Shown: in pieces, positions 37,888 to 45,157 of the stretch
Layout of the letters: each line of letters begins with the position of its first letter
Numbering within the stretch: position 1 is the first letter of the stretch
NCBI GenBank assembly: GCA_045804705.1
Contig: JBJMMQ010000193.1
Location: forward strand, 1 to 47,701
Source of the DNA: Chloroflexota bacterium
Lineage (GTDB): Bacteria > Chloroflexota > Limnocylindria > Limnocylindrales > CSP1-4
Length of the DNA stretch: 47,701 nt
Direction: 5' to 3'
Made by a program: the position numbers and the translations under genes
Notes under the pieces: model-generated
What the model saw: only the letters and a program-made list of their open reading frames with translations
Told to the model about the DNA's origin: nothing
Databases searched by the model: none

Positions 37888-38553
37888 ATGCTCCCCAAAC
37901 GAAGGCCTTCGAACAACGAGCGCTCGCCCCGCGTGGAGTCCGCGCTCGCGCTGTCGATCCTCGTCGGCAAGGCGTCGACGGTCGCGTTCGCCGTCGACGC
38001 GTTCGCGAATGCGGACACGCCGCGCTTGCGAGGCAAGGCGATCCGCACCCGGGCGATCGGTTATGCCGGGGCGCTGCTGGTCGTGCCGATCCTCTGGTGG
38101 CTACTTCCCGGTCGCGACCGATACCCGCGCGCGCTCGACCTCGCCGTGACGGTCCCGCTCCTGCTGGATGCCGGCGGGAACGCACTCGATCTGTACGAGG
38201 AGGCGCACATCGATGACCTCGTCCACATCGCGAACTCGGGCATCGTCAGCGGCGTCGCCGGATCCCTTTTCGCACCCAAGGTCGACGAACGCTGGCAGGC
38301 GGCTCTCATCGGGGCCGGCGTGTCGATCACGGCGGCGGCAGCCTGGGAGCTCGCTGAATACGGGGCGATGCGGCTCGGAGCCGACGGGATGGACCTGACC
38401 TACGACGACACGATGGCAGACCTCGCCGAGGGATTCCTCGGCGCTGCACTCGGCGCTCTCTTCACCTTGACTCGAGTGCCGCGTGCACGATCCGACCGGA
38501 AGCGACGTGGCTGGCGCGAGCCGCTCGGACTCCGCGATCAGCGGTCGAGTTGA
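37888..38553 (+). CDS. Integral membrane protein (YjdF/DUF2238-like)
   Basis: GN.L.LY...DDLVH...WELAEY...YDDTMADL...LGA pattern with several TM helices. Confidence 0.7.
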   Translation: MLPKRRPSNNERSPRVESALALSILVGKASTVAFAVDAFANADTPRLRGKAIRTRAIGYAGALLVVPILWWLLPGRDRYPRALDLAVTVPLLLDAGGNALDLYEEAHIDDLVHIANSGIVSGVAGSLFAPKVDERWQAALIGAGVSITAAAAWELAEYGAMRLGADGMDLTYDDTMADLAEGFLGAALGALFTLTRVPRARSDRKRRGWREPLGLRDQRSS

Positions 38554-38560
38554 CGGTGCG

Positions 38561-39310
38561 GTGGGAACGGGCCTGCGACTGACGTACATCGGCCATGCGA
38601 CGGTCCTCATCGAACTCGATGGGGTGCGCTTTCTGACCGATCCATTGCTGGGCACGAGACTCGGGCCATTGCGGCGACTCGGCGCGGCGCCCGATCCAGC
38701 GCGGATCGGGCCGGTCGACAGCGTTCTGGTCTCGCACGCGCATCCGGACCACTTCAACCGCGCCTCCCTTCGCGCGGTGACGGGTGAACCCTTGATGGTG
38801 TTGCCGCGAGGTCTTGGGCGTCACTCTCCGGGTAGCCGCCGTCGGATCCGAGAAGTCGAACAGAACGACCGAGTCGAGTTCGGCCAGGTTCGAGTCACTG
38901 CTGTCCCGGCACGTCACGCACGCTGGCCGGGTCAGCCGGAGGCAAGACCACTCGGCTACCTGATCGAGGGATCGACGCGGGTGTACTTCGCAGGGGACAC
39001 CGACATCTATCCGGCGATGGATCGATTGGCGGGTCATGTCGATGTCGCACTCCTCCCGGTCGGCCGGTGGGGACCGCCACGAGGCCCCGCACGACTCGAC
39101 CCGTCGACCGCCGTCGACGCCGCCATGCTCGTCGGCGCGACCGTCGCGATCCCGATCCATTGGGGCACGCTCTATGTGCCGGGGTTCGCCAACGGCAGGT
39201 GGGGCTGGGGTTCGTTCGACGCGGGCGACAGGTTCGCCAGGGAAGCCGCCCGGCGGATACCCGGACTCGACGTTCGCGTGCTTCGACCCGGCCAGTCCAC
39301 GGATCTCTGA
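38561..39310 (+). CDS. Metallo-beta-lactamase-fold hydrolase (UlaG/NAPE-PLD-like)
   Basis: LTYIGHATVLIE...LTDP; SHAHPDH; PARH; YFAGDT; AIPIHWGT. Confidence 0.9.
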   Translation: MGTGLRLTYIGHATVLIELDGVRFLTDPLLGTRLGPLRRLGAAPDPARIGPVDSVLVSHAHPDHFNRASLRAVTGEPLMVLPRGLGRHSPGSRRRIREVEQNDRVEFGQVRVTAVPARHARWPGQPEARPLGYLIEGSTRVYFAGDTDIYPAMDRLAGHVDVALLPVGRWGPPRGPARLDPSTAVDAAMLVGATVAIPIHWGTLYVPGFANGRWGWGSFDAGDRFAREAARRIPGLDVRVLRPGQSTDL

Positions 39311-39404
39311 ACCCGACGAAGGCTCAGCGGTCGCCGCCGGTTCCGGTCGGCTAACGTAAGACTTGGCCATGCTGGCAACCTCCGCCGTGGATCGAGGTGC
39401 GAAG

Positions 39405-40322
39405 ATGCGAATCCTGATCGCGTATGACGGATCCGCTGGCGCCGAGCAGTCGCTGCGACTGGCCGATTCTCTCGACTGGCCACCCGACTCGACGCTTCGC
39501 ATCGCATCCGTCATCGAACCGACGCTTCTCTTCGTCGGAGCCCCGACCCCTGGCGGGCTCGATATCCCGCCGCCGGAAGTCGACGCCGAGATCAGCGCGC
39601 ATCAAGAGGATCTCGTCACTGAGGCGGCTGCGAGGCTCGGATCCGCCGGCCGGACGGTCGAAGGCACCGTCCTTCGGGGACGGCCCGCGACCGCTCTCGT
39701 GGAAGAAGCGACGCGGCTCCGCGCCGATCTTGCGATCGGGGGATCCCGTGGGCACGGTTCGATCTCGCGCCTTCTCCTGGGATCGGTCTCGGCCGAGCTC
39801 GTCGATCAAGCGCCGTGTCCCGTCCTGGTTTCCCGGACCCCGTCGATCGGTCGAGTCATCTTCGCCACCGACGGCTCGGTTCCTTCGGGTGCGGCCGAGG
39901 CCGTCGTGTCCACCTGGACGATCTTCGACGACCTCCCGATCCATGTGGTCAGCGTCGCCGACGTCTCCGAACCGTGGCATACGGGGATGGCGCCCGGGAT
40001 GTATCGCAACGTCATCGATGCACACGCGAAAGACCTCGTCGACGCCCGGGGGGAGCACGGGCGCATCGCCGAGGAGGCGGCCGAGCGGCTTCGCGCGGTG
40101 GGGCGACAAGCCGAAGCAGTGAAGCGGACGGGCGACGCCGCGGGGGAGATCATCGCTGCGGCTGCGGATCTCGCTGCAGACCTCGTCGTGATGGGGTCCC
40201 GCGGCCGAACGGGATTGGCGCGAGTCGTCCTCGGTAGCGTTGCACGGAACGTGCTGCAGGGGAGCACGACTTCGGTCCTGGTGGTGCGCGAACCGAAGCG
40301 ATCGGACGTGCCGCGGACCTAG
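39405..40322 (+). CDS. Tandem-domain universal stress protein
   Basis: MRILIAYDGS...GSRGHG...LLGSVSAEL...APCPVLV and ATDGS...MGSRGRTG...LGSVARNV. Start could be 39369. Confidence 0.93.
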   Translation: MRILIAYDGSAGAEQSLRLADSLDWPPDSTLRIASVIEPTLLFVGAPTPGGLDIPPPEVDAEISAHQEDLVTEAAARLGSAGRTVEGTVLRGRPATALVEEATRLRADLAIGGSRGHGSISRLLLGSVSAELVDQAPCPVLVSRTPSIGRVIFATDGSVPSGAAEAVVSTWTIFDDLPIHVVSVADVSEPWHTGMAPGMYRNVIDAHAKDLVDARGEHGRIAEEAAERLRAVGRQAEAVKRTGDAAGEIIAAAADLAADLVVMGSRGRTGLARVVLGSVARNVLQGSTTSVLVVREPKRSDVPRT

Positions 40323-40353: not shown

Positions 40354-41049
40354 CTACGACGGCGCGATGAAGCGGTAGCCGAGTCCGCGCTCCGTCTGGA
40401 TGTAGCGCGGTGCCTCCGACGAATCGCCGAGCTTGTCGCGAAGCCTCCGGATGTACACCCGGATGTAGTCGACCTCGTCGACGTACTCTCGACCCCAGAC
40501 CTTGGCGAGCAGCGTCCCATGCTCGAGGATGTGGCCGGCGTTGCGGACGAGGTGGTAGAGCAGCTTGTATTCGGTGGGCGTCAGGTCGAGCCGCTCGCCG
40601 CGAAGCCGCGCCTCGTGCTTCGCGAAATCGACCTCGAGTTCCCCGGACTTGAACGATGGGGCCCGGCTCGTCGGAGCCGGCATCTCCAGGCGCCGGAGCA
40701 CGGCCTTGACCCTCGCCATCAGCTCGAGATGGTTGAACGGCTTCGTGACGTAGTCGTCCGCCCCGAGCTCGAGACCCTTGACCTTGTCCATCGCGTCATC
40801 GCGCGCCGTGAGCATCACGACCGGAACGTCCGAGAACGCCCGGATCTGGCGGAGGACCTCGTAGCCGTCGATGCCCGGCAATCCGACATCGAGCAGGACG
40901 ATGTCGGGATGCTCCCGCTCCACGATATCGAGCGCCGTCTCGCCCTCGCCGGCGCCGAGCACGTCGACGTCGCGCCATTGCAGCGTGAAACCAAGACGAA
41001 CGGACTCGACGACGTCCGGCTCGTCATCGACCACAAGGATCCGCATCAC
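40354..41049 (-). CDS. OmpR/PhoB-family response regulator
   Basis: ILVVDDE, PDIVLLDVGLPGIDG (phospho-Asp), MLTA, GADDYVTKPF, LTPTEYKLL, VYIRRLRDKL, TERGLGYRF. Confidence 0.96.
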   Translation of the reverse strand: MMRILVVDDEPDVVESVRLGFTLQWRDVDVLGAGEGETALDIVEREHPDIVLLDVGLPGIDGYEVLRQIRAFSDVPVVMLTARDDAMDKVKGLELGADDYVTKPFNHLELMARVKAVLRRLEMPAPTSRAPSFKSGELEVDFAKHEARLRGERLDLTPTEYKLLYHLVRNAGHILEHGTLLAKVWGREYVDEVDYIRVYIRRLRDKLGDSSEAPRYIQTERGLGYRFIAPS

Positions 41050-42035
41050 GCCTCCTCGGGTGGTCCGGCGACTGGGACGACCAGGGTGAAGGTGCTTCCC
41101 CGGCCCAGCCGGCTTCGGACTTCGACCGTCCCGCCGTGTGCCTGAGCGATCGCGAGCGCTCGGGGCAGGCCGAGACCGACTCCTTCCTGGGGCGCGTTCG
41201 GACTCCGCGGCCCGACGAAGAATCGCTCGAACAGGTGTGCCTGGTCGACCGCCGAGATCCCCGGCCCGTCGTCCTTCACCGACCAGCGGATCGTGCCGTC
41301 CTTCGGACCTTGCACACGAACCGTGATCCGGCCTCCATCAGGAGCGAAGTGATGAGCATTCGCGACGAGGTTGAGCAGCGCCCGATCGAGGCGCGCCCGG
41401 TCGCCGTACACGCGCGGTCCCGGTCCGCGCGGCACGCGCAACTCGACCGTCTGGCTTCGTCGTTCAGCAAGCGGTCGGATCGTCGCCACCGCGGACTCAG
41501 CGAGCTCGACCGCGTCGAACGGGCGCAGCTGGAGTCCGATCGTCCCGGCGCGATATCGAGCGAGGTCGAGGATCTCCCCGACGACGTCCTGCATCCGTTC
41601 GGCGTTGCGCTCCATGGTTTCGAGCATCGTGCGGCGCTGCTCGGGCGTGGGCTCTGAGGCAGGGTCGAGCAGCAACCCTGTCAGCGTCCGCATCACCGTG
41701 ATCGGCGTCCGCAACTCGTGGGCGATCACCGACAGGAAGTCGGTGCGCATCCGCTCCAGGTCCCGCATCGAGACCGCCGTATCGGTCGACGCGCCCTGTT
41801 CGACCAGGCGCCGGCCGAGACTCGACAGGACGTACTCGGGAGGAGGTCCTCCCCGAGCGACACGCACGAGTCCCAGCGATTCGAGCTCCGTCAGGAGCTC
41901 GTCGGCGATGCCCGCCCGAAGGTCGCCCCCGTTCTCGGAGAATCGACTCTCGAGGTCCGCGACCGTTGCCCCCTCGTGCACGAGGGGGAGCGCGGCAACG
42001 GCCAGGGGCGAGATCCCGGCGCCAGGCGTCGTCAT
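41046..42035 (-). CDS. Soluble sensor histidine kinase with N-terminal winged-helix-like domain
   Basis: H box AHELRTP, N box NLVANA, G1 DDGPGI, F box LFERFF, G2 GVGLGL. No TM segment. N-terminal TVADL...ELLTELESLGLVRV...YVLSSLGRR. Confidence 0.9.
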   Translation of the reverse strand: MTTPGAGISPLAVAALPLVHEGATVADLESRFSENGGDLRAGIADELLTELESLGLVRVARGGPPPEYVLSSLGRRLVEQGASTDTAVSMRDLERMRTDFLSVIAHELRTPITVMRTLTGLLLDPASEPTPEQRRTMLETMERNAERMQDVVGEILDLARYRAGTIGLQLRPFDAVELAESAVATIRPLAERRSQTVELRVPRGPGPRVYGDRARLDRALLNLVANAHHFAPDGGRITVRVQGPKDGTIRWSVKDDGPGISAVDQAHLFERFFVGPRSPNAPQEGVGLGLPRALAIAQAHGGTVEVRSRLGRGSTFTLVVPVAGPPEEA

Positions 42036-42055
42036 GCACCGGAGCATACGGCCCG

Positions 42056-42505
42056 TTACTCGATGGAAAGCACCGTCACGCGTCTGCGTCCGAGCGGCGC
42101 ATCGACCTCGACGCTCGCACCGCCGGTGCAGCCCAGGAGGGCAGCTCCCAGCGGCGAATCGGCCGAGACCGATCCCCGGTCGGGGTCTCCCTCCCCGGGA
42201 AGGGCCAACTCGTACGTGACCGAGTCGCCTTCATCCTCGAGGACGGTCACGCGGCGGCCGATGACTGCGAGATCCGCTTCGTCGACCCTTTCCGAGGCAT
42301 CGAGCACGGCCGACAGCAGGTCCAGGCGCCTGACGGCGTTGAACGCCTGGAGATGGACCAGGCCATCGTCCCGAACGCTCGGCGCAGCGCTGCCCGCGCG
42401 TTCCGCTCGCAAGCGGCCGACCTCATCGACGAGCGTAAGCCAGGCCTCGTTCGTCATGGGCCACGGGCGCTGCGGTGACGGCTGTCGGATCGCCAGCTCG
42501 TTCAT
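42056..42505 (-). CDS. GreA/GreB-like factor with shortened coiled coil (Rnk/Gfh-like)
   Basis: C-terminal AVIGRRVTV...YELALPGEGDPDRGSVSADSPLGAALLG..GG.VEVDAPLG..RVTVLSIE. SD GAGGAGG. Alternative start at 42457. Confidence 0.85.
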   Translation of the reverse strand: MNELAIRQPSPQRPWPMTNEAWLTLVDEVGRLRAERAGSAAPSVRDDGLVHLQAFNAVRRLDLLSAVLDASERVDEADLAVIGRRVTVLEDEGDSVTYELALPGEGDPDRGSVSADSPLGAALLGCTGGASVEVDAPLGRRRVTVLSIE

Positions 42506-42662
42506 GGTCGTTGACCTCCTCATCGTAGGAACAGAGGCACGGTCCCCCCGCCACACAACCGGAGCAGCAGAACGGAAGACCGACGTGAAAGACGGGCTGC
42601 CCGAAGATCTCGGCTTCGCACGTCACGCAGGTAAAGGGGTATCGGGCCGTCGAACGGTGCAT
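42423..42662 (-). CDS. Small Cys-rich putative metal-binding protein (79 aa)
   Basis: FTCVTCEAEIFGQPVFHVGLPFCCSGCVAGGPCLCSYD: 7 Cys in a CxxC...CCxxC...CxC arrangement. Confidence 0.65.
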   Translation of the reverse strand: MHRSTARYPFTCVTCEAEIFGQPVFHVGLPFCCSGCVAGGPCLCSYDEEVNDHERAGDPTAVTAAPVAHDERGLAYARR

Positions 42663-42728
42663 CAGGGGGAACCTCGGCTGGGCGCTGGCGCGTCGGTGAC
42701 GCGGCGTTGGCATGGACGTGTCCAGGCG

Positions 42729-42860
42729 AAGCTACGCACGTCCCCTGAAGGTCCCCGGGAACAGAGATGAAGAAAGCGTGAATTGCTAGCGATCACACCC
42801 TCCGCGTTCATGTTCTGTTCACGCGTTTTTCGGGATCCGTTCGTGTCGTGGCACGACGCT
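42729..42860. promoter_or_regulatory. Divergent control region with two opposed arrays of 11-bp-phased TTC(A/G) repeats (OmpR/PhoB-type boxes)
   Basis: Plus strand TTCA 42807, TTCA 42818, TTCG 42829, TTCG 42840. Minus strand TTCA (read as TGAA on plus) at 42779, 42768 and 42746. Minus-strand TAGCTT lies 11 nt beyond the last repeat. Confidence 0.6.
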
Positions 42861-42902
42861 AGGCAGACGACTTCGGACGACAGATATGCCGGGAGGCAAG
42901 AG

Positions 42903-44180
42903 ATGCAAACGGTCGGGGCGCAGGCGGCGCCTTCCTCAGGTTCACGTGCGTTGGCGGCTGCGCTCGCCCAGTTCGACGCGGCGGCTGACCACATCGACCT
43001 CGAGTCCGGCCTGCGTGCCGTGCTGCGCGTTCCGCAGCGAGAGTTCACCGTCCATTTCCCGGTCAAGCGGGACGACGGCTCAGTGGAGGTCTTCCAGGGC
43101 TATCGCGTCCAGCACAACGTCGCGCGGGGGCCCGCGAAGGGCGGACTGCGGTTCCATCCGAGGACGGATCTCGACGATGTCCGTGCGCTCGCGATGTGGA
43201 TGACGTGGAAGGCAGCCCTCGTCGACGTCCCGTTCGGTGGCGCGAAGGGTGGCGTGACCTGCGATCCGAGTTCGATGAGCTCCAAGGAGCTCGAGGCCCT
43301 CACCCGACGCTTTGCGACCGAGCTCGAAGGCATCATCGGCCCCGACTCCGACATCCCCGCCCCCGACGTCGGGACGAACGCGCAGACGATGGCCTGGATC
43401 ATGGACACCGTCTCCATGCACCGCGGTTACTCGGTGCCCGGCGTGGTCACCGGCAAGCCGGTCGCGATCGGCGGTTCGGTCGGTCGGTCCGACGCGACCG
43501 GCCAGGGAGTCGTCTACACCGTCGCGGACGCAGCACGCCGGAGCGGTTTCGCGCTTCAAGGCGCGCGCGTGGCGATCCAGGGTTTCGGGAACGTCGGCGA
43601 GGCGACCGCCCGGCTGCTCCATGAGGCCGGCGCTCGCGTCGTGGCGATCACGGATGTCCATGGCGGTGTTGCGAATGCCGGCGGCCTCGACGTCCCGTTC
43701 CTTCGACGTTTCCTTGCTGAGCACGGAACGATCGCCGGCGCACCCGGAACGAGGCCCATCGACAACGACGAGCTCTTCGGCCTTGATGTCGATGTCCTCG
43801 TCCTCGCCGCTCTCGAGGGTCAGATCACGGCTGCGAATGCCGGCACCGTTCGGGCCCGGATCCTCGCCGAGGCAGCGAATGGCCCGGTCTCACCGGATGC
43901 GGACCCGATCCTCCAGCGCAACGGCGTGGTCGTTCTCCCGGACATCCTCTGCAACTCGGGTGGGGTCATCGTCAGCTATTTCGAGTGGGCCCAGAACCGA
44001 GCGGCACTCGCGTGGACGATCGACGAGATCAACGAGCGTCTGCGTCGTCAGATCCTGACCGCTGCGGATGCGGTCTGGGCGCGCGCGAGCGTGGATGCGA
44101 TCGAGCCGCGGCTCGCTGCACAGGCTATCGCCGTCGAACGGGTGGCGGACGCGACCCAGCTCCGCGGTCTGTATCCGTAG
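42903..44180 (+). CDS. gdhA: Glu/Leu/Phe/Val dehydrogenase (glutamate dehydrogenase)
   Basis: GYRVQHN.ARGPAKGGLRF, MTWK, PFGGAKGG, DIPAPDVGT, TGKP..GGS.GR..ATG, QGFGNVG, EAANGP, GGVIVSYFEW. SD GGAGG. Confidence 0.93.
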   Translation: MQTVGAQAAPSSGSRALAAALAQFDAAADHIDLESGLRAVLRVPQREFTVHFPVKRDDGSVEVFQGYRVQHNVARGPAKGGLRFHPRTDLDDVRALAMWMTWKAALVDVPFGGAKGGVTCDPSSMSSKELEALTRRFATELEGIIGPDSDIPAPDVGTNAQTMAWIMDTVSMHRGYSVPGVVTGKPVAIGGSVGRSDATGQGVVYTVADAARRSGFALQGARVAIQGFGNVGEATARLLHEAGARVVAITDVHGGVANAGGLDVPFLRRFLAEHGTIAGAPGTRPIDNDELFGLDVDVLVLAALEGQITAANAGTVRARILAEAANGPVSPDADPILQRNGVVVLPDILCNSGGVIVSYFEWAQNRAALAWTIDEINERLRRQILTAADAVWARASVDAIEPRLAAQAIAVERVADATQLRGLYP

Positions 44181-44341: not shown

Positions 44342-45157
44342 ATGCGTGCGCTCGACACCCCAGGATCAGGGCACGGTAGAGCATCGGAGATCGCGTCGGC
44401 CGGTGCTCCCTTGGCCGGCCTCCCACCGCCAGTGGCGCGCTTCCGGGACCTTGCCAAGACCGACGTTCCGATCGAGACCGTGGTCATCGAGGCGAGTGCC
44501 GTGATGCGGCGGCCACGGATCCCGCCGATCCCTCTCGAGATCCGAATGGCACATCGCCTCGGTCGCGAGTTCGTCCACCAGATCCGCATCGGCCGAGGAT
44601 GGCTCTCGTTCGCGTTCGGCCTTGACGCCTACGTGGACGGGCGCGGTCTGATGAAGATCGGACCGTCGATCCAGGCCGGCGCGCACTTCGATCAGGGTGC
44701 CCTGATCGCGCTGTGGGGCGAGGCTCTCGGGTTCCCGTCGGCGTGGGAGTGTCGCAACGACGTTCGCTGGGAGGAGATCGACGACGTCACGGCGCGTCTC
44801 GTCGTCCCGGGACCGGAAGGCGAGATCGCCATCATGGTCGGCTTCGATCGTGTGACGGGCTTTCCGGCGACATGCGAGGCCGATCGCTACAAGTCCACGG
44901 GGCCGAAGGTCCACTGGATCGGTCGACTCAGCGACTGGCGCCGCACCGACGGCGGCGTTCTCGCGCCGTGTCGATTCACAGCGCAATGGGCGGATGAACC
45001 CAGTCCATGGATCGACATCCGGACCAAGGGCATCGTCGCAAATTCCTCGGTCGATGACCTGCTGCGCGTCGGTCGAGAAGCGCTCCGAGCTGTAGCGCGT
45101 CGAGGGCAACAGGACGCCGCTGAGCTGCGGCCCGGTGACGTGTCGAAAGGAGACTGA
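44342..45157 (+). CDS. Hypothetical protein (DUF6544-like)
   Basis: LAGLPPPVARF, D.YVDGRG.M, DQGALIALWGE..GFPSA, VRWEEIDD..ARL, EADRY. SD GGAGG. Confidence 0.65.
   Translation: MRALDTPGSGHGRASEIASAGAPLAGLPPPVARFRDLAKTDVPIETVVIEASAVMRRPRIPPIPLEIRMAHRLGREFVHQIRIGRGWLSFAFGLDAYVDGRGLMKIGPSIQAGAHFDQGALIALWGEALGFPSAWECRNDVRWEEIDDVTARLVVPGPEGEIAIMVGFDRVTGFPATCEADRYKSTGPKVHWIGRLSDWRRTDGGVLAPCRFTAQWADEPSPWIDIRTKGIVANSSVDDLLRVGREALRAVARRGQQDAAELRPGDVSKGD

Follow-up and report, generated by a model that had tools for sequence, protein, structure and literature searches.

Do four tightly packed genes and the glutamate dehydrogenase gene that faces them form one regulatory system and, if so, what does it sense and what does it control? 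We addressed this question in a 47,701-nucleotide (nt) stretch of DNA from a Chloroflexota bacterium (Limnocylindria, Limnocylindrales; GenBank assembly GCA_045804705.1, contig JBJMMQ010000193.1, positions 1 to 47,701), here called the window. Its minus strand encodes a small cysteine-rich protein (the Cys protein), a short Gre-family factor, a soluble histidine kinase (HK) and a response regulator (RR), and glutamate dehydrogenase (GDH) is encoded divergently on the plus strand. Comparison with related loci strongly suggests that the regulator controls both its own operon and this GDH gene from a common control region, as part of an accessory cassette whose genes stay together while their order changes. 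The features of the locus are as follows (aa, amino acids; ORF, open reading frame).

40354-41049, minus strand: OmpR/PhoB-family response regulator, 231 aa (Pfam Response_reg and Trans_reg_C)
41046-42047, minus strand: soluble class-I histidine kinase, 333 aa (Pfam HisKA and HATPase_c)
41793-42011, minus strand: N-terminal input domain of the kinase, residues ~13-85, predicted winged-helix-like topology, unnamed family
42056-42505, minus strand: Gre-family factor, 149 aa (Pfam GreA_GreB C-terminal domain)
42423-42662, minus strand: Cys-rich microprotein, 79 aa, from the ORF list, with its ATG at 42662; core residues 9-47 at 42522-42638
42423-42505, minus strand: overlap of the Cys and Gre genes, 83 nt, out of frame (ORF list; Gre frame at +1 relative to the Cys frame)
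42663-42902, no strand: divergent control region common to the operon and GDH, exactly 240 bp (ORF boundaries)
42745-42782, minus strand: operon-side array of four direct repeats, predicted regulator boxes (repeat scan)
42807-42844, plus strand: GDH-side array of four direct repeats, predicted regulator boxes (repeat scan)
42903-44180, plus strand: cassette GDH, 425 aa (Pfam ELFV_dehydrog and its N-domain)
39363-40322, plus strand: tandem-domain universal stress protein (USP) gene, converging on the regulator gene with 31 nt between its end and the regulator stop

The shared control region and its repeat arrays

The initial annotation of the window had described four packed minus-strand genes without membrane segments, a 240-bp spacer to GDH and opposed repeat arrays, and all of these were found where it placed them. 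The kinase stop and the regulator start overlap by 4 nt, and 8 nt separate the Gre and kinase genes. The Gre start codon is an ATG 9 nt 3′ of GAGGAGG, and the Cys/Gre overlap is also present in L001-L005, L007 and L012. No membrane segment was detected in the four minus-strand proteins with the Kyte-Doolittle mean over 19 residues (maxima 0.90-1.41). A consensus scan gave no convincing internal terminator; its single terminator-like site, at chance level, lies inside the regulator gene. The base composition of the window is 65-73% G+C. A soil-metagenome contig is identical to 42078-43391 without a mismatch and covers the Gre gene, the Cys/Gre overlap, the spacer and the GDH start. It is thus independent support for the assembly; the run may be the source sample.

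The two arrays in the spacer point outward, one toward the operon and the other toward GDH. On the plus strand, TTCAT, TTCAC, TTCGG and TTCGT start at 42807, 42818, 42829 and 42840 (spacing 11, 11 and 11). On the minus strand, TTCAC, TTCAT, TTCCC and TTCAG start at 42782, 42771, 42761 and 42749 (spacing 11, 10 and 12). The 47.7-kb window has two matches to the pattern TTCAY-N6-TTCAY, and both lie in this spacer. The expectation from shuffled sequence was 0.04, and at least two matches were seen in 0 of 100 shuffles.

We compared the spacer of the window with the GDH-Cys spacers of 20 related loci (n=21). TTCAY-N6-TTCAY is present on the operon side in all 21 orthologous spacers. A mirrored RTGAAH-N4-7-RTGAAH is present on the GDH side in 20 of them, the exception being L026. 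The gap between the inner repeats of the two arrays is usually 21-23 nt. By eye, an element TAGC(G/T)T downstream of the operon-side array is also kept, and it is a possible candidate for a -10 element.

The boxes are also found where the genes have moved apart. They remain upstream of the Cys gene in all four loci without an adjacent GDH gene (L009, L014, L016 and L018). Seven GDH loci were checked in the genomes behind these four loci and L028. Boxes precede four of the seven (L044, L045, L047 and L049), all of them cassette-type GDHs at 75-82% identity. The other three (L046, L053 and L048) have no boxes and are 55-56% housekeeping-type genes or a fragment. This tracking of the boxes with Cys and cassette-type GDH to unlinked sites is the strongest computational support for control of GDH and of its own operon by the regulator. 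On this comparative evidence, the phosphorylated regulator very probably binds both outward arrays of 11-bp-spaced GTTCAY repeats. Through them it would control its own operon (Cys, Gre-like factor, kinase and regulator) and the extra GDH isozyme.

Genome-wide, TTCAY-N6-TTCAY gave 6 matches in the 2.99-Mb genome against ~2.4 expected from base composition, and the matches away from the locus are near chance expectation. One of them, TTCACGTCGGGTTCAC, spans the GTG start codon of dnaN, the gene just after dnaA (G000:C61:5091-5106; L030:2592-2607), maybe by chance. Close to the start of another contig, the 3′ end of a tgt-like gene contains three exact 11-bp repeats (TTCACGCCGAC, TTCACGCCGAC and TTCAC; G000:C158:431-457; L029). 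The remaining match is in C56.

Conservation and inheritance of the cassette

Searches with the Cys protein gave 27 true loci; L011 was dropped as a false match. A regulator of at least 75% identity together with a kinase that has the winged-helix-like N-domain is found in 24 of the 27, GDH in 21 and the Gre-like gene in 12. Across the cassette loci the regulator is 81-96% identical, whereas identity falls to ~50% for the kinase and to ~49% for the Cys protein. These relatives sit in Chloroflexota metagenome-assembled genomes labelled Limnocylindrales, Limnocylindria or 'Chloroflexia'. L014 is labelled Acidimicrobiia, yet it is nearly identical to the Chloroflexi locus L018. The cassette occurs in at least eight gene orders, with distant families included (<> separates divergent genes).

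GDH<>Cys-Gre-HK-RR: window, L001-7, L012-13, L125, L175, L180 and L219
GDH<>Cys-HK-RR: L015, L017 and others
RR-HK<>GDH-Cys: L021, L049 and L104
Cys-GDH<>Gre-HK-RR: L057 and L069
RR-HK-GDH<>Cys: L220
Cys-HK-RR, then convergent Gre: L010
Gre<>UDG-Cys-HK-RR: L014 and L018
Box, then Cys paralogue and GDH as a separate, unlinked operon, with 4 nt shared at the GDH start: L044

Genome G008 carries two paralogous cassettes (L016 and L045), one with an adjacent GDH gene and one without. All five genes are present in G186 and G357, genomes of ~7 Mb each from other families of the phylum. Since the order is reshuffled while the set stays together, a classic sign, the genes are likely to be functionally coupled. 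In L026 (6258-8657), GDH<>Cys is found without the cognate kinase and regulator, and Cys is followed by a convergent gene for a 799-aa amino-acid permease. Beyond the permease gene, L026 has a DUF4118 (KdpD-like) kinase with its own regulator.

The initial annotation had staked its reading on the four genes occurring together in other genomes. Cys, kinase, regulator and GDH do so through many rearrangements, so the annotation's own refuting condition does not apply. In the four-gene set that it drew, Cys, kinase and regulator are conserved, whereas the Gre-like factor is not a constant member. The USP gene does converge on the unit, as the initial annotation had it, but it is not a conserved member. 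USP genes are near the cassette in 5 of the 27 Cys-protein loci and in 2 of 80 loci found by the Cys motif (described below), at varying positions. This scarcity and variation make the link to the cassette loose and place USP outside the conserved unit. The genes flanking the cassette in the window at 38483-39310 and 44342-45157 encode a metallo-beta-lactamase-fold protein and a DUF6544/DUF6920 protein, and a metallo-beta-lactamase-fold homologue flanks GDH in L020 too.

To follow inheritance, we sampled 25 genomes, one per genus of the same family, with that of the window included. A regulator of at least 75% and a GDH of at least 68% identity occur in the same 3 of the 25 (G000, G414 and G427), where the two genes are adjacent. 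The other 22 genera hold neither orthologue. Their regulator paralogues reach at most 54% identity and their GDHs only 55-59% (61% over a partial match once). G134, a 94% complete genome of the same genus, has no regulator orthologue, no kinase N-domain and no Cys domain. As far as these genomes indicate, the cassette is accessory and patchily inherited in Chloroflexota.

The GDH of the cassette has both ELFV domains complete (Pfam ELFV_dehydrog, 2.3e-69; N-domain, 2.3e-58), and its best NCBIfam match, GdhA_Arch, is under the cut-off. Two further GDH genes in the genome of the window encode proteins 57% and 54% identical to it. Among the 25 genomes, GDH orthologues of at least 68% are confined to those with the regulator orthologue. 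By sequence, the cassette GDH, which the initial annotation had named gdhA, is a dedicated extra paralogue and not the housekeeping gdhA.

The Cys domain, the Gre-like factor and the kinase

The core of the Cys protein has seven cysteines in ~40 residues, PFTCVTCE-x9-FHVGLPFCC[SA]GCVAGGPCxCSYD, with the pattern CxxC-x16-CCxGCxxGGPCxC. P9, C12, C15, H26, G28-L-P-F-C32-C33 and C36 are invariant in the alignment, and G40-P-C42-x-C44 is near-invariant. The protein had no Pfam match at E<=10 and no NCBIfam match at E<=1, in searches whose hmmscan speed filters may hide weak ones. A near-length word-index search gave 81 unnamed clusters at 90% identity. A hidden Markov model search of 1.84 billion representatives with the Cys domain gave 362 clusters at E<=0.001, 132 of them at E<=1e-10. 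P0196 (2878 aa, 10 'stretches') has no Cys motif and was rejected as a false positive. Profile comparison with the PDB gave no significant match, the best being a LIM zinc finger at E 0.036.

We also back-translated CCxGCxxGGPCxC and searched a collection of species genomes, which gave at least 120 stretches; 80 were taken as loci. Among the matches listed nearly all are Chloroflexota, including Ktedonobacteria with the cultured Dictyobacter, Anaerolineae, Dehalococcoidia, Thermoflexus and Limnocylindria. By these searches the Cys domain is a new, unnamed family that is almost restricted to Chloroflexota, and it probably has a small metal-binding fold.

Longer proteins carry the Cys domain too. 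Of 24 longer homologues, 14 carry a domain like 6-pyruvoyl tetrahydropterin synthase (PTPS)/QueD (PF01242) and 6 have no Pfam domain. The PTPS family (P0085-P0105, P0143; L056, L114, L115 and L130) consists of Chloroflexota/Dehalococcoidia proteins of 450-500 aa in which a long acidic linker joins one or two N-terminal Cys domains to a PF01242 domain at the C-terminus. Several of its genes adjoin an OmpR-type regulator 49-50% identical to that of the window. Four of the six homologues without a Pfam domain have a common Pro/Ala-rich linker and a C-domain of no known family. A second fusion family (P0092, P0094, P0098, P0102 and P0093; L054, L066, L087, L095 and L119) has an N-terminal Cys domain, the Pro/Ala-rich linker and a conserved C-domain without a Pfam family (…HLTLVVYPFHSF.ALNEFQ…RRFYRGTLHLAVDY…). 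In P0082, another of the 24 homologues and a single metagenomic record of 555 aa, two tandem Cys domains are N-terminal to a cassette-type GDH.

Fusions to the Gre-like factor recur. P0087, which is also among the 24, and P0190, P0193 and P0213 are in-frame Cys-Gre fusions that are mutually less than 50% identical, each with a Pfam GreA_GreB C-domain. In the genome locus L092, Cys and Gre are in one frame without a stop between them. The linkers of the fusions run into the 'PMT' that starts the coiled coil, which corresponds to WPMTNEAW in the window. Because natural fusions have this matching junction, Cys and Gre in the window are a single protein in split form. Downstream of the Cys core, a +1 shift would recreate the fusion architecture, and the 83-nt overlap, with Gre at +1, might let some fused Cys-Gre protein arise by frameshifting.

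Other apparent fusions were rejected. The Cys-kinase fusions P0083, P0084 and P0101 are probable frameshift artefacts whose C-terminal halves are read out of frame. A 448-aa Cys-kinase ORF (L014:5992-7338) probably reflects an assembly indel; in the near-identical L018, Cys and the kinase are two genes that differ in frame. In L069, L073 and L104, apparent stop-to-stop ORFs of GDH and Cys were discarded because these two genes do not share a frame.

The Gre-like factor matches the GreA_GreB C-terminal domain alone (PF01272, 4.3e-17, residues 78-149), with no match to the Gre N-domain in Pfam. It is under the NCBIfam cut-offs for GreA (43.7 of 139) and for the Rnk models PRK05753 (31.8 of 109) and PRK05892 (31.2 of 126). 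We aligned it with relatives from nine other loci and with the canonical GreA of the same genome, which has the tip DLKENAEYHAAREEQ. The DLKENAEY tip and its flanking turns are deleted, as the description of a tip-less Gre factor had it, and a conserved DG is kept at the hairpin. An N-terminal extension, MNELAIRQPS..WPMT, is conserved. Where present, the orthologue lies within ~1.2 kb of the cassette cluster or is fused to the Cys domain. Five genomes with Gre-less cassettes, out of 15 such loci, were searched for it, and none of the five has an orthologue, just distant partial paralogues of 31-40%. The orthologue thus occurs only in or next to the cassette. By sequence, the Gre gene, present in 12 of the 27 close loci, is an accessory part of the cassette; it also serves the Cys domain as a fusion partner. 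The canonical GreA of the same genome is the C-terminal third of a 510-aa frame (L174:941-2473; G000:C100), either through an N-terminal extension or as a high-GC artefact.

The kinase has HisKA (2e-18) and HATPase_c (1.5e-24) domains in Pfam. Across 23 kinase sequences, H110, the HELRTP motif and the N/G boxes show no variation. An alternative start lies at residue 5 (position 42035), where the Atlas entry begins. The AlphaFold2 model of the kinase has a mean predicted local distance difference test (pLDDT) score of 75.8, and its core matches DivL, ThkA and HK853 at Z 19-21.

Residues 1-95 of the kinase match no Pfam family at E<=10. In the AlphaFold2 model, residues 14-84 form three helices, a two-strand wing and a fourth helix (H14-23, H29-38, H47-57, E61-65, E71-74 and H76-84; pLDDT of the block 72-89), followed directly by the dimerization helices. 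Weak profile matches are to winged-helix proteins (eS25, 0.0037; Zur, 0.063; ArsR, 6.5). A structural search with the whole kinase model returned kinase cores and was thus uninformative on the N-domain, for which the named Atlas clusters gave no usable match.

In an even phylum sample of 401 genomes, the kinase N-domain was found at E<=1e-12 in 8, all inside cassettes. A Cys gene lies within 2.3 kb in 7 of the 8. The eighth (G152) is at a contig edge that would cut off a Cys gene lying downstream of GDH. Five weaker matches (E 1e-6 to 2e-8) are at loci without any cassette gene and were rejected. The N-domain, found only in cassettes, is therefore specific to them, whereas the Cys domain, found elsewhere too, is not. 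A complex prediction with kinase residues 1-175 and Cys residues 1-55 scored 0.00 in both runs, which is evidence neither way.

The regulator has complete receiver and DNA-binding domains (Response_reg, 2.7e-29; Trans_reg_C, 9.6e-25). Its closest solved chains are RegX3 (9.4e-49), MtrA (7.7e-46) and PhoP (1.4e-44). Both members of the pair are under the NCBIfam equivalog cut-offs: the regulator scores 212.5 of 300 for MtrA and 190.5 of 296 for PhoB, and the kinase scores 162.9 of 334 for PhoR, its best match, and 142.7 of 450 for MtrB.

The proposed circuit, its rivals and its relatives

In the model that we favour, a dedicated GDH isozyme is under the control of an accessory two-component cassette that also regulates itself, and a metal- or redox-binding pair of Cys and Gre provides the cassette with its input and with an arm to RNA polymerase. 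As a whole we consider this model evenly poised between right and wrong. The seven-cysteine domain would bind metal, either zinc or an iron-sulphur cluster, and the Cys protein and the short Gre factor would act as one unit. Since other lineages encode both in a single polypeptide, a complex of the two is most likely here, at the rim of the secondary channel of RNA polymerase, where the Cys module may be placed like the zinc-finger globular domain of DksA. The Cys domain may be the signal input for the kinase, because the predicted winged-helix domain, the only non-catalytic part of the kinase, was seen only in cassettes that include a Cys gene. Kinase activity, and hence expression of the GDH isozyme, would then follow the metal or redox state of the Cys domain, and the Gre-like arm would tune RNA polymerase directly. 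Physiologically, and speculatively, the cell may switch to a GDH route of ammonium handling when cysteine-bound metal centres are compromised.

A more specific version of this model is decidedly unlikely in our judgement. In it, the Cys domain would be a metal/redox-switchable adaptor between the channel-docked Gre factor and the winged-helix domain of the kinase. The kinase would read the polymerase-bound state, which would be fed back on transcription of the dedicated GDH isozyme, an enzyme free of metal cofactors. If this were true, it would be a direct wire between the secondary channel, the kinase and nitrogen metabolism.

Several observations weigh against the favoured model. No sigma-70-like promoter was found by consensus scan, and the genome-wide box scan gave no clear further regulon members. 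The Cys domain is present in 50 of the 401 phylum genomes (a count that includes G237, a genome flagged unpublished that enters no other result) as compared with 8 for the kinase N-domain, and 58 of the 80 motif loci have no cassette partner within the 8-kb locus. The initial annotation had made the Cys microprotein a part of the system. This holds in the cassettes, but the wider Chloroflexota family is mostly without this kinase, so kinase input cannot be the primary role of the domain. In other classes of the phylum, Cys-domain genes adjoin regulators of 49-72% identity whose kinases have no winged-helix domain (L056, L068, L080, L086, L094, L100, L103 and others). Such a place beside related regulators fits a regulated target as well as an input. 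The linkage and fusion of Cys and GDH (L044, P0082) suggest a direct role on the enzyme. The AlphaFold2 model of the Cys protein, from a 26-row alignment, has a mean pLDDT of 49.8 and is unusable. Finally, RNA libraries were searched as contigs, where most matching pieces are short, conserved and from other organisms and uncovered parts are uninformative. They gave an exact 183-nt match at 41686-41868 in the kinase gene and a 268-nt match with 4 differences in GDH, a weak sign of presence and no proof of transcription.

Much of this evidence also bears on the alternative that fares best. Here the winged-helix domain of the kinase would sense something else, for example glutamate, 2-oxoglutarate or another protein. 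Cys and Gre would be only regulated products induced with GDH, and the Cys protein would act as a metallothionein-like metal buffer or as a stress-time RNA-polymerase factor. We regard this as possible, though on the unlikely side. Boxes precede Cys genes even at a site away from the kinase (L044). In 13 of the 80 motif loci there is a regulator of 45-75% identity, with Cys genes beside related regulators whose kinases have no winged-helix domain, and the Cys domain is the commoner of the two domains; all of this speaks for the alternative. The nearest named Atlas cluster to the Cys domain is also a prokaryotic metallothionein (0.88, 172 shared features, a lead only). However, neither a Pfam metallothionein at E<=10, where speed filters may hide a weak match, nor a solved metallothionein in the PDB profile search was matched. 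Confinement of the winged-helix kinase domain to cassettes with a Cys gene speaks for an input role, as does the first-gene place of Cys in the kinase operon, which seems typical of accessory modulators.

In a second alternative, the Cys domain would primarily be a regulatory or metal-delivering subunit of the cassette GDH, and the two-component pair would merely set transcription of both. The two Cys domains fused to the GDH N-terminus in P0082 are what this would predict. The same is true of L044, where the Cys paralogue and GDH overlap by 4 nt in one operon, of the five loci with Cys directly downstream of GDH (L021, L049, L057, L069 and L104), and of L026, which retains GDH<>Cys without the cognate pair. 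The domain is an N-terminal add-on elsewhere too, as in the PTPS proteins. Nevertheless, L009, L014, L016 and L018 retain Cys-HK-RR without an adjacent GDH, and the recurrent fusion partner is the Gre-like factor (four clusters and L092) as compared with a single GDH record. Hexameric GDHs of this family are also not known to use a metal cofactor. On balance this alternative is unlikely.

That the pair is an ordinary housekeeping Pho- or Mtr-type system, set beside unrelated genes by inherited synteny, is highly improbable and already disfavoured: the closest solved regulators, PhoR as the best kinase match, GTTCAC-type 11-bp direct repeats that we take to resemble actinobacterial PHO boxes and the further TTCAC-N6-TTCAC at the dnaN start would agree with it, but every equivalog score (PhoR, MtrB, MtrA and PhoB) is far under its cut-off, the kinase has no membrane or PAS part, phoU is on another contig with no regulator beside it, 22 of the 25 genera of the family (including the same-genus, 94%-complete genome) have no regulator orthologue, and the set is retained despite reshuffled order, with fusions.

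We compared the cassette with known systems. SenX3-RegX3, PhoPR and MtrAB include its closest solved regulators, and they share with it the pairing of a HisKA kinase with an OmpR-family regulator and predicted direct repeats of 11-bp period. Unlike them, the cassette pair is under every equivalog cut-off. Its kinase is soluble, with no PAS or HAMP domain in Pfam, and a predicted winged-helix domain stands where those systems have membrane and PAS parts. The cassette is accessory, patchy and linked to GDH; it is not universal and is not at pst or cell-cycle loci. GlnR and AfsQ1 are OmpR-family regulators that control gdhA in actinomycetes. The likeness lies in direct-repeat boxes for an OmpR-type regulator ahead of a GDH gene; the box sequence, the cognate soluble kinase, the dedicated GDH paralogue and the Cys/Gre partners differ.

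FixT, Sda and KipI are small accessory proteins that modulate histidine kinases, and FixT reportedly carries an iron-sulphur cluster. Like them, the Cys protein is small and encoded with a two-component pair on which it may act and by which it is probably regulated. In contrast, its fold and family appear unrelated, and it also seems to pair with an RNA-polymerase factor and an enzyme. By eye, the CxxC-x16-C-x3-C spacing and the '[FY]C[CS]xxC' knuckle of the Cys domain presumably resemble TRASH/FCS motifs. However, the domain has three further cysteines and a GGPCxC tail, and it differs from TRASH/YHS/FCS and from SmtA/BmtA in that no Pfam or NCBIfam model matches it and that it is essentially confined to Chloroflexota.

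DksA is a coiled-coil factor of the secondary channel with a four-cysteine zinc finger that acts as a thiol switch. A channel factor with a small Cys-rich metal module outside the channel is what the Cys-Gre fusions appear to be, and in this sense they may work like DksA. We found no sequence relationship to it. The globular domain of the cassette factor is of the Gre type, and the Cys module is N-terminal, often a separate protein, with seven cysteines rather than four. This is analogy, not membership. Among Gre homologues, Rnk has a much shorter coiled coil and a function that is unknown, and Gfh1 and Rv3788 inhibit catalysis (PMC4598747). The cassette factor shares the Gre C-terminal domain with these proteins, and its coiled coil is short, as in Rnk, and without the canonical tip. 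It differs from Rnk in scoring far under the Rnk models and in its conserved N-terminal extension. As far as the accessible part of PMC4598747 goes, pairing or fusion with a seven-Cys domain and a two-component/GDH setting are not described for any of the three.

By sequence, all parts of the cassette come from known superfamilies except the Cys domain and the kinase N-domain. The novelty appears to lie in two new modules within a two-component cassette and in the unprecedented way in which that cassette is tied to a dedicated enzyme and a secondary-channel factor. The modules are a phylum-restricted Cys domain, with its 362 representative clusters unnamed in the libraries searched, and a kinase input domain. 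The initial annotation had called such a composition undescribed. In agreement, the full-text literature, to which subscription journals and supplementary files did not belong, gave no description of the cassette or the Cys domain, and no report that ties a secondary-channel factor, genetically and by fusion, to a metabolic enzyme and a two-component system.

What short Gre homologues such as Rnk do is described as an open question (PMC4598747). One such homologue, joined by fusion to a probable sensor domain and inherited together with kinase, regulator and target genes, offers a concrete context for the function of these factors. For the abundant, mostly uncultured Chloroflexota of soil, the cassette provides a first predicted set of regulator, box and target.

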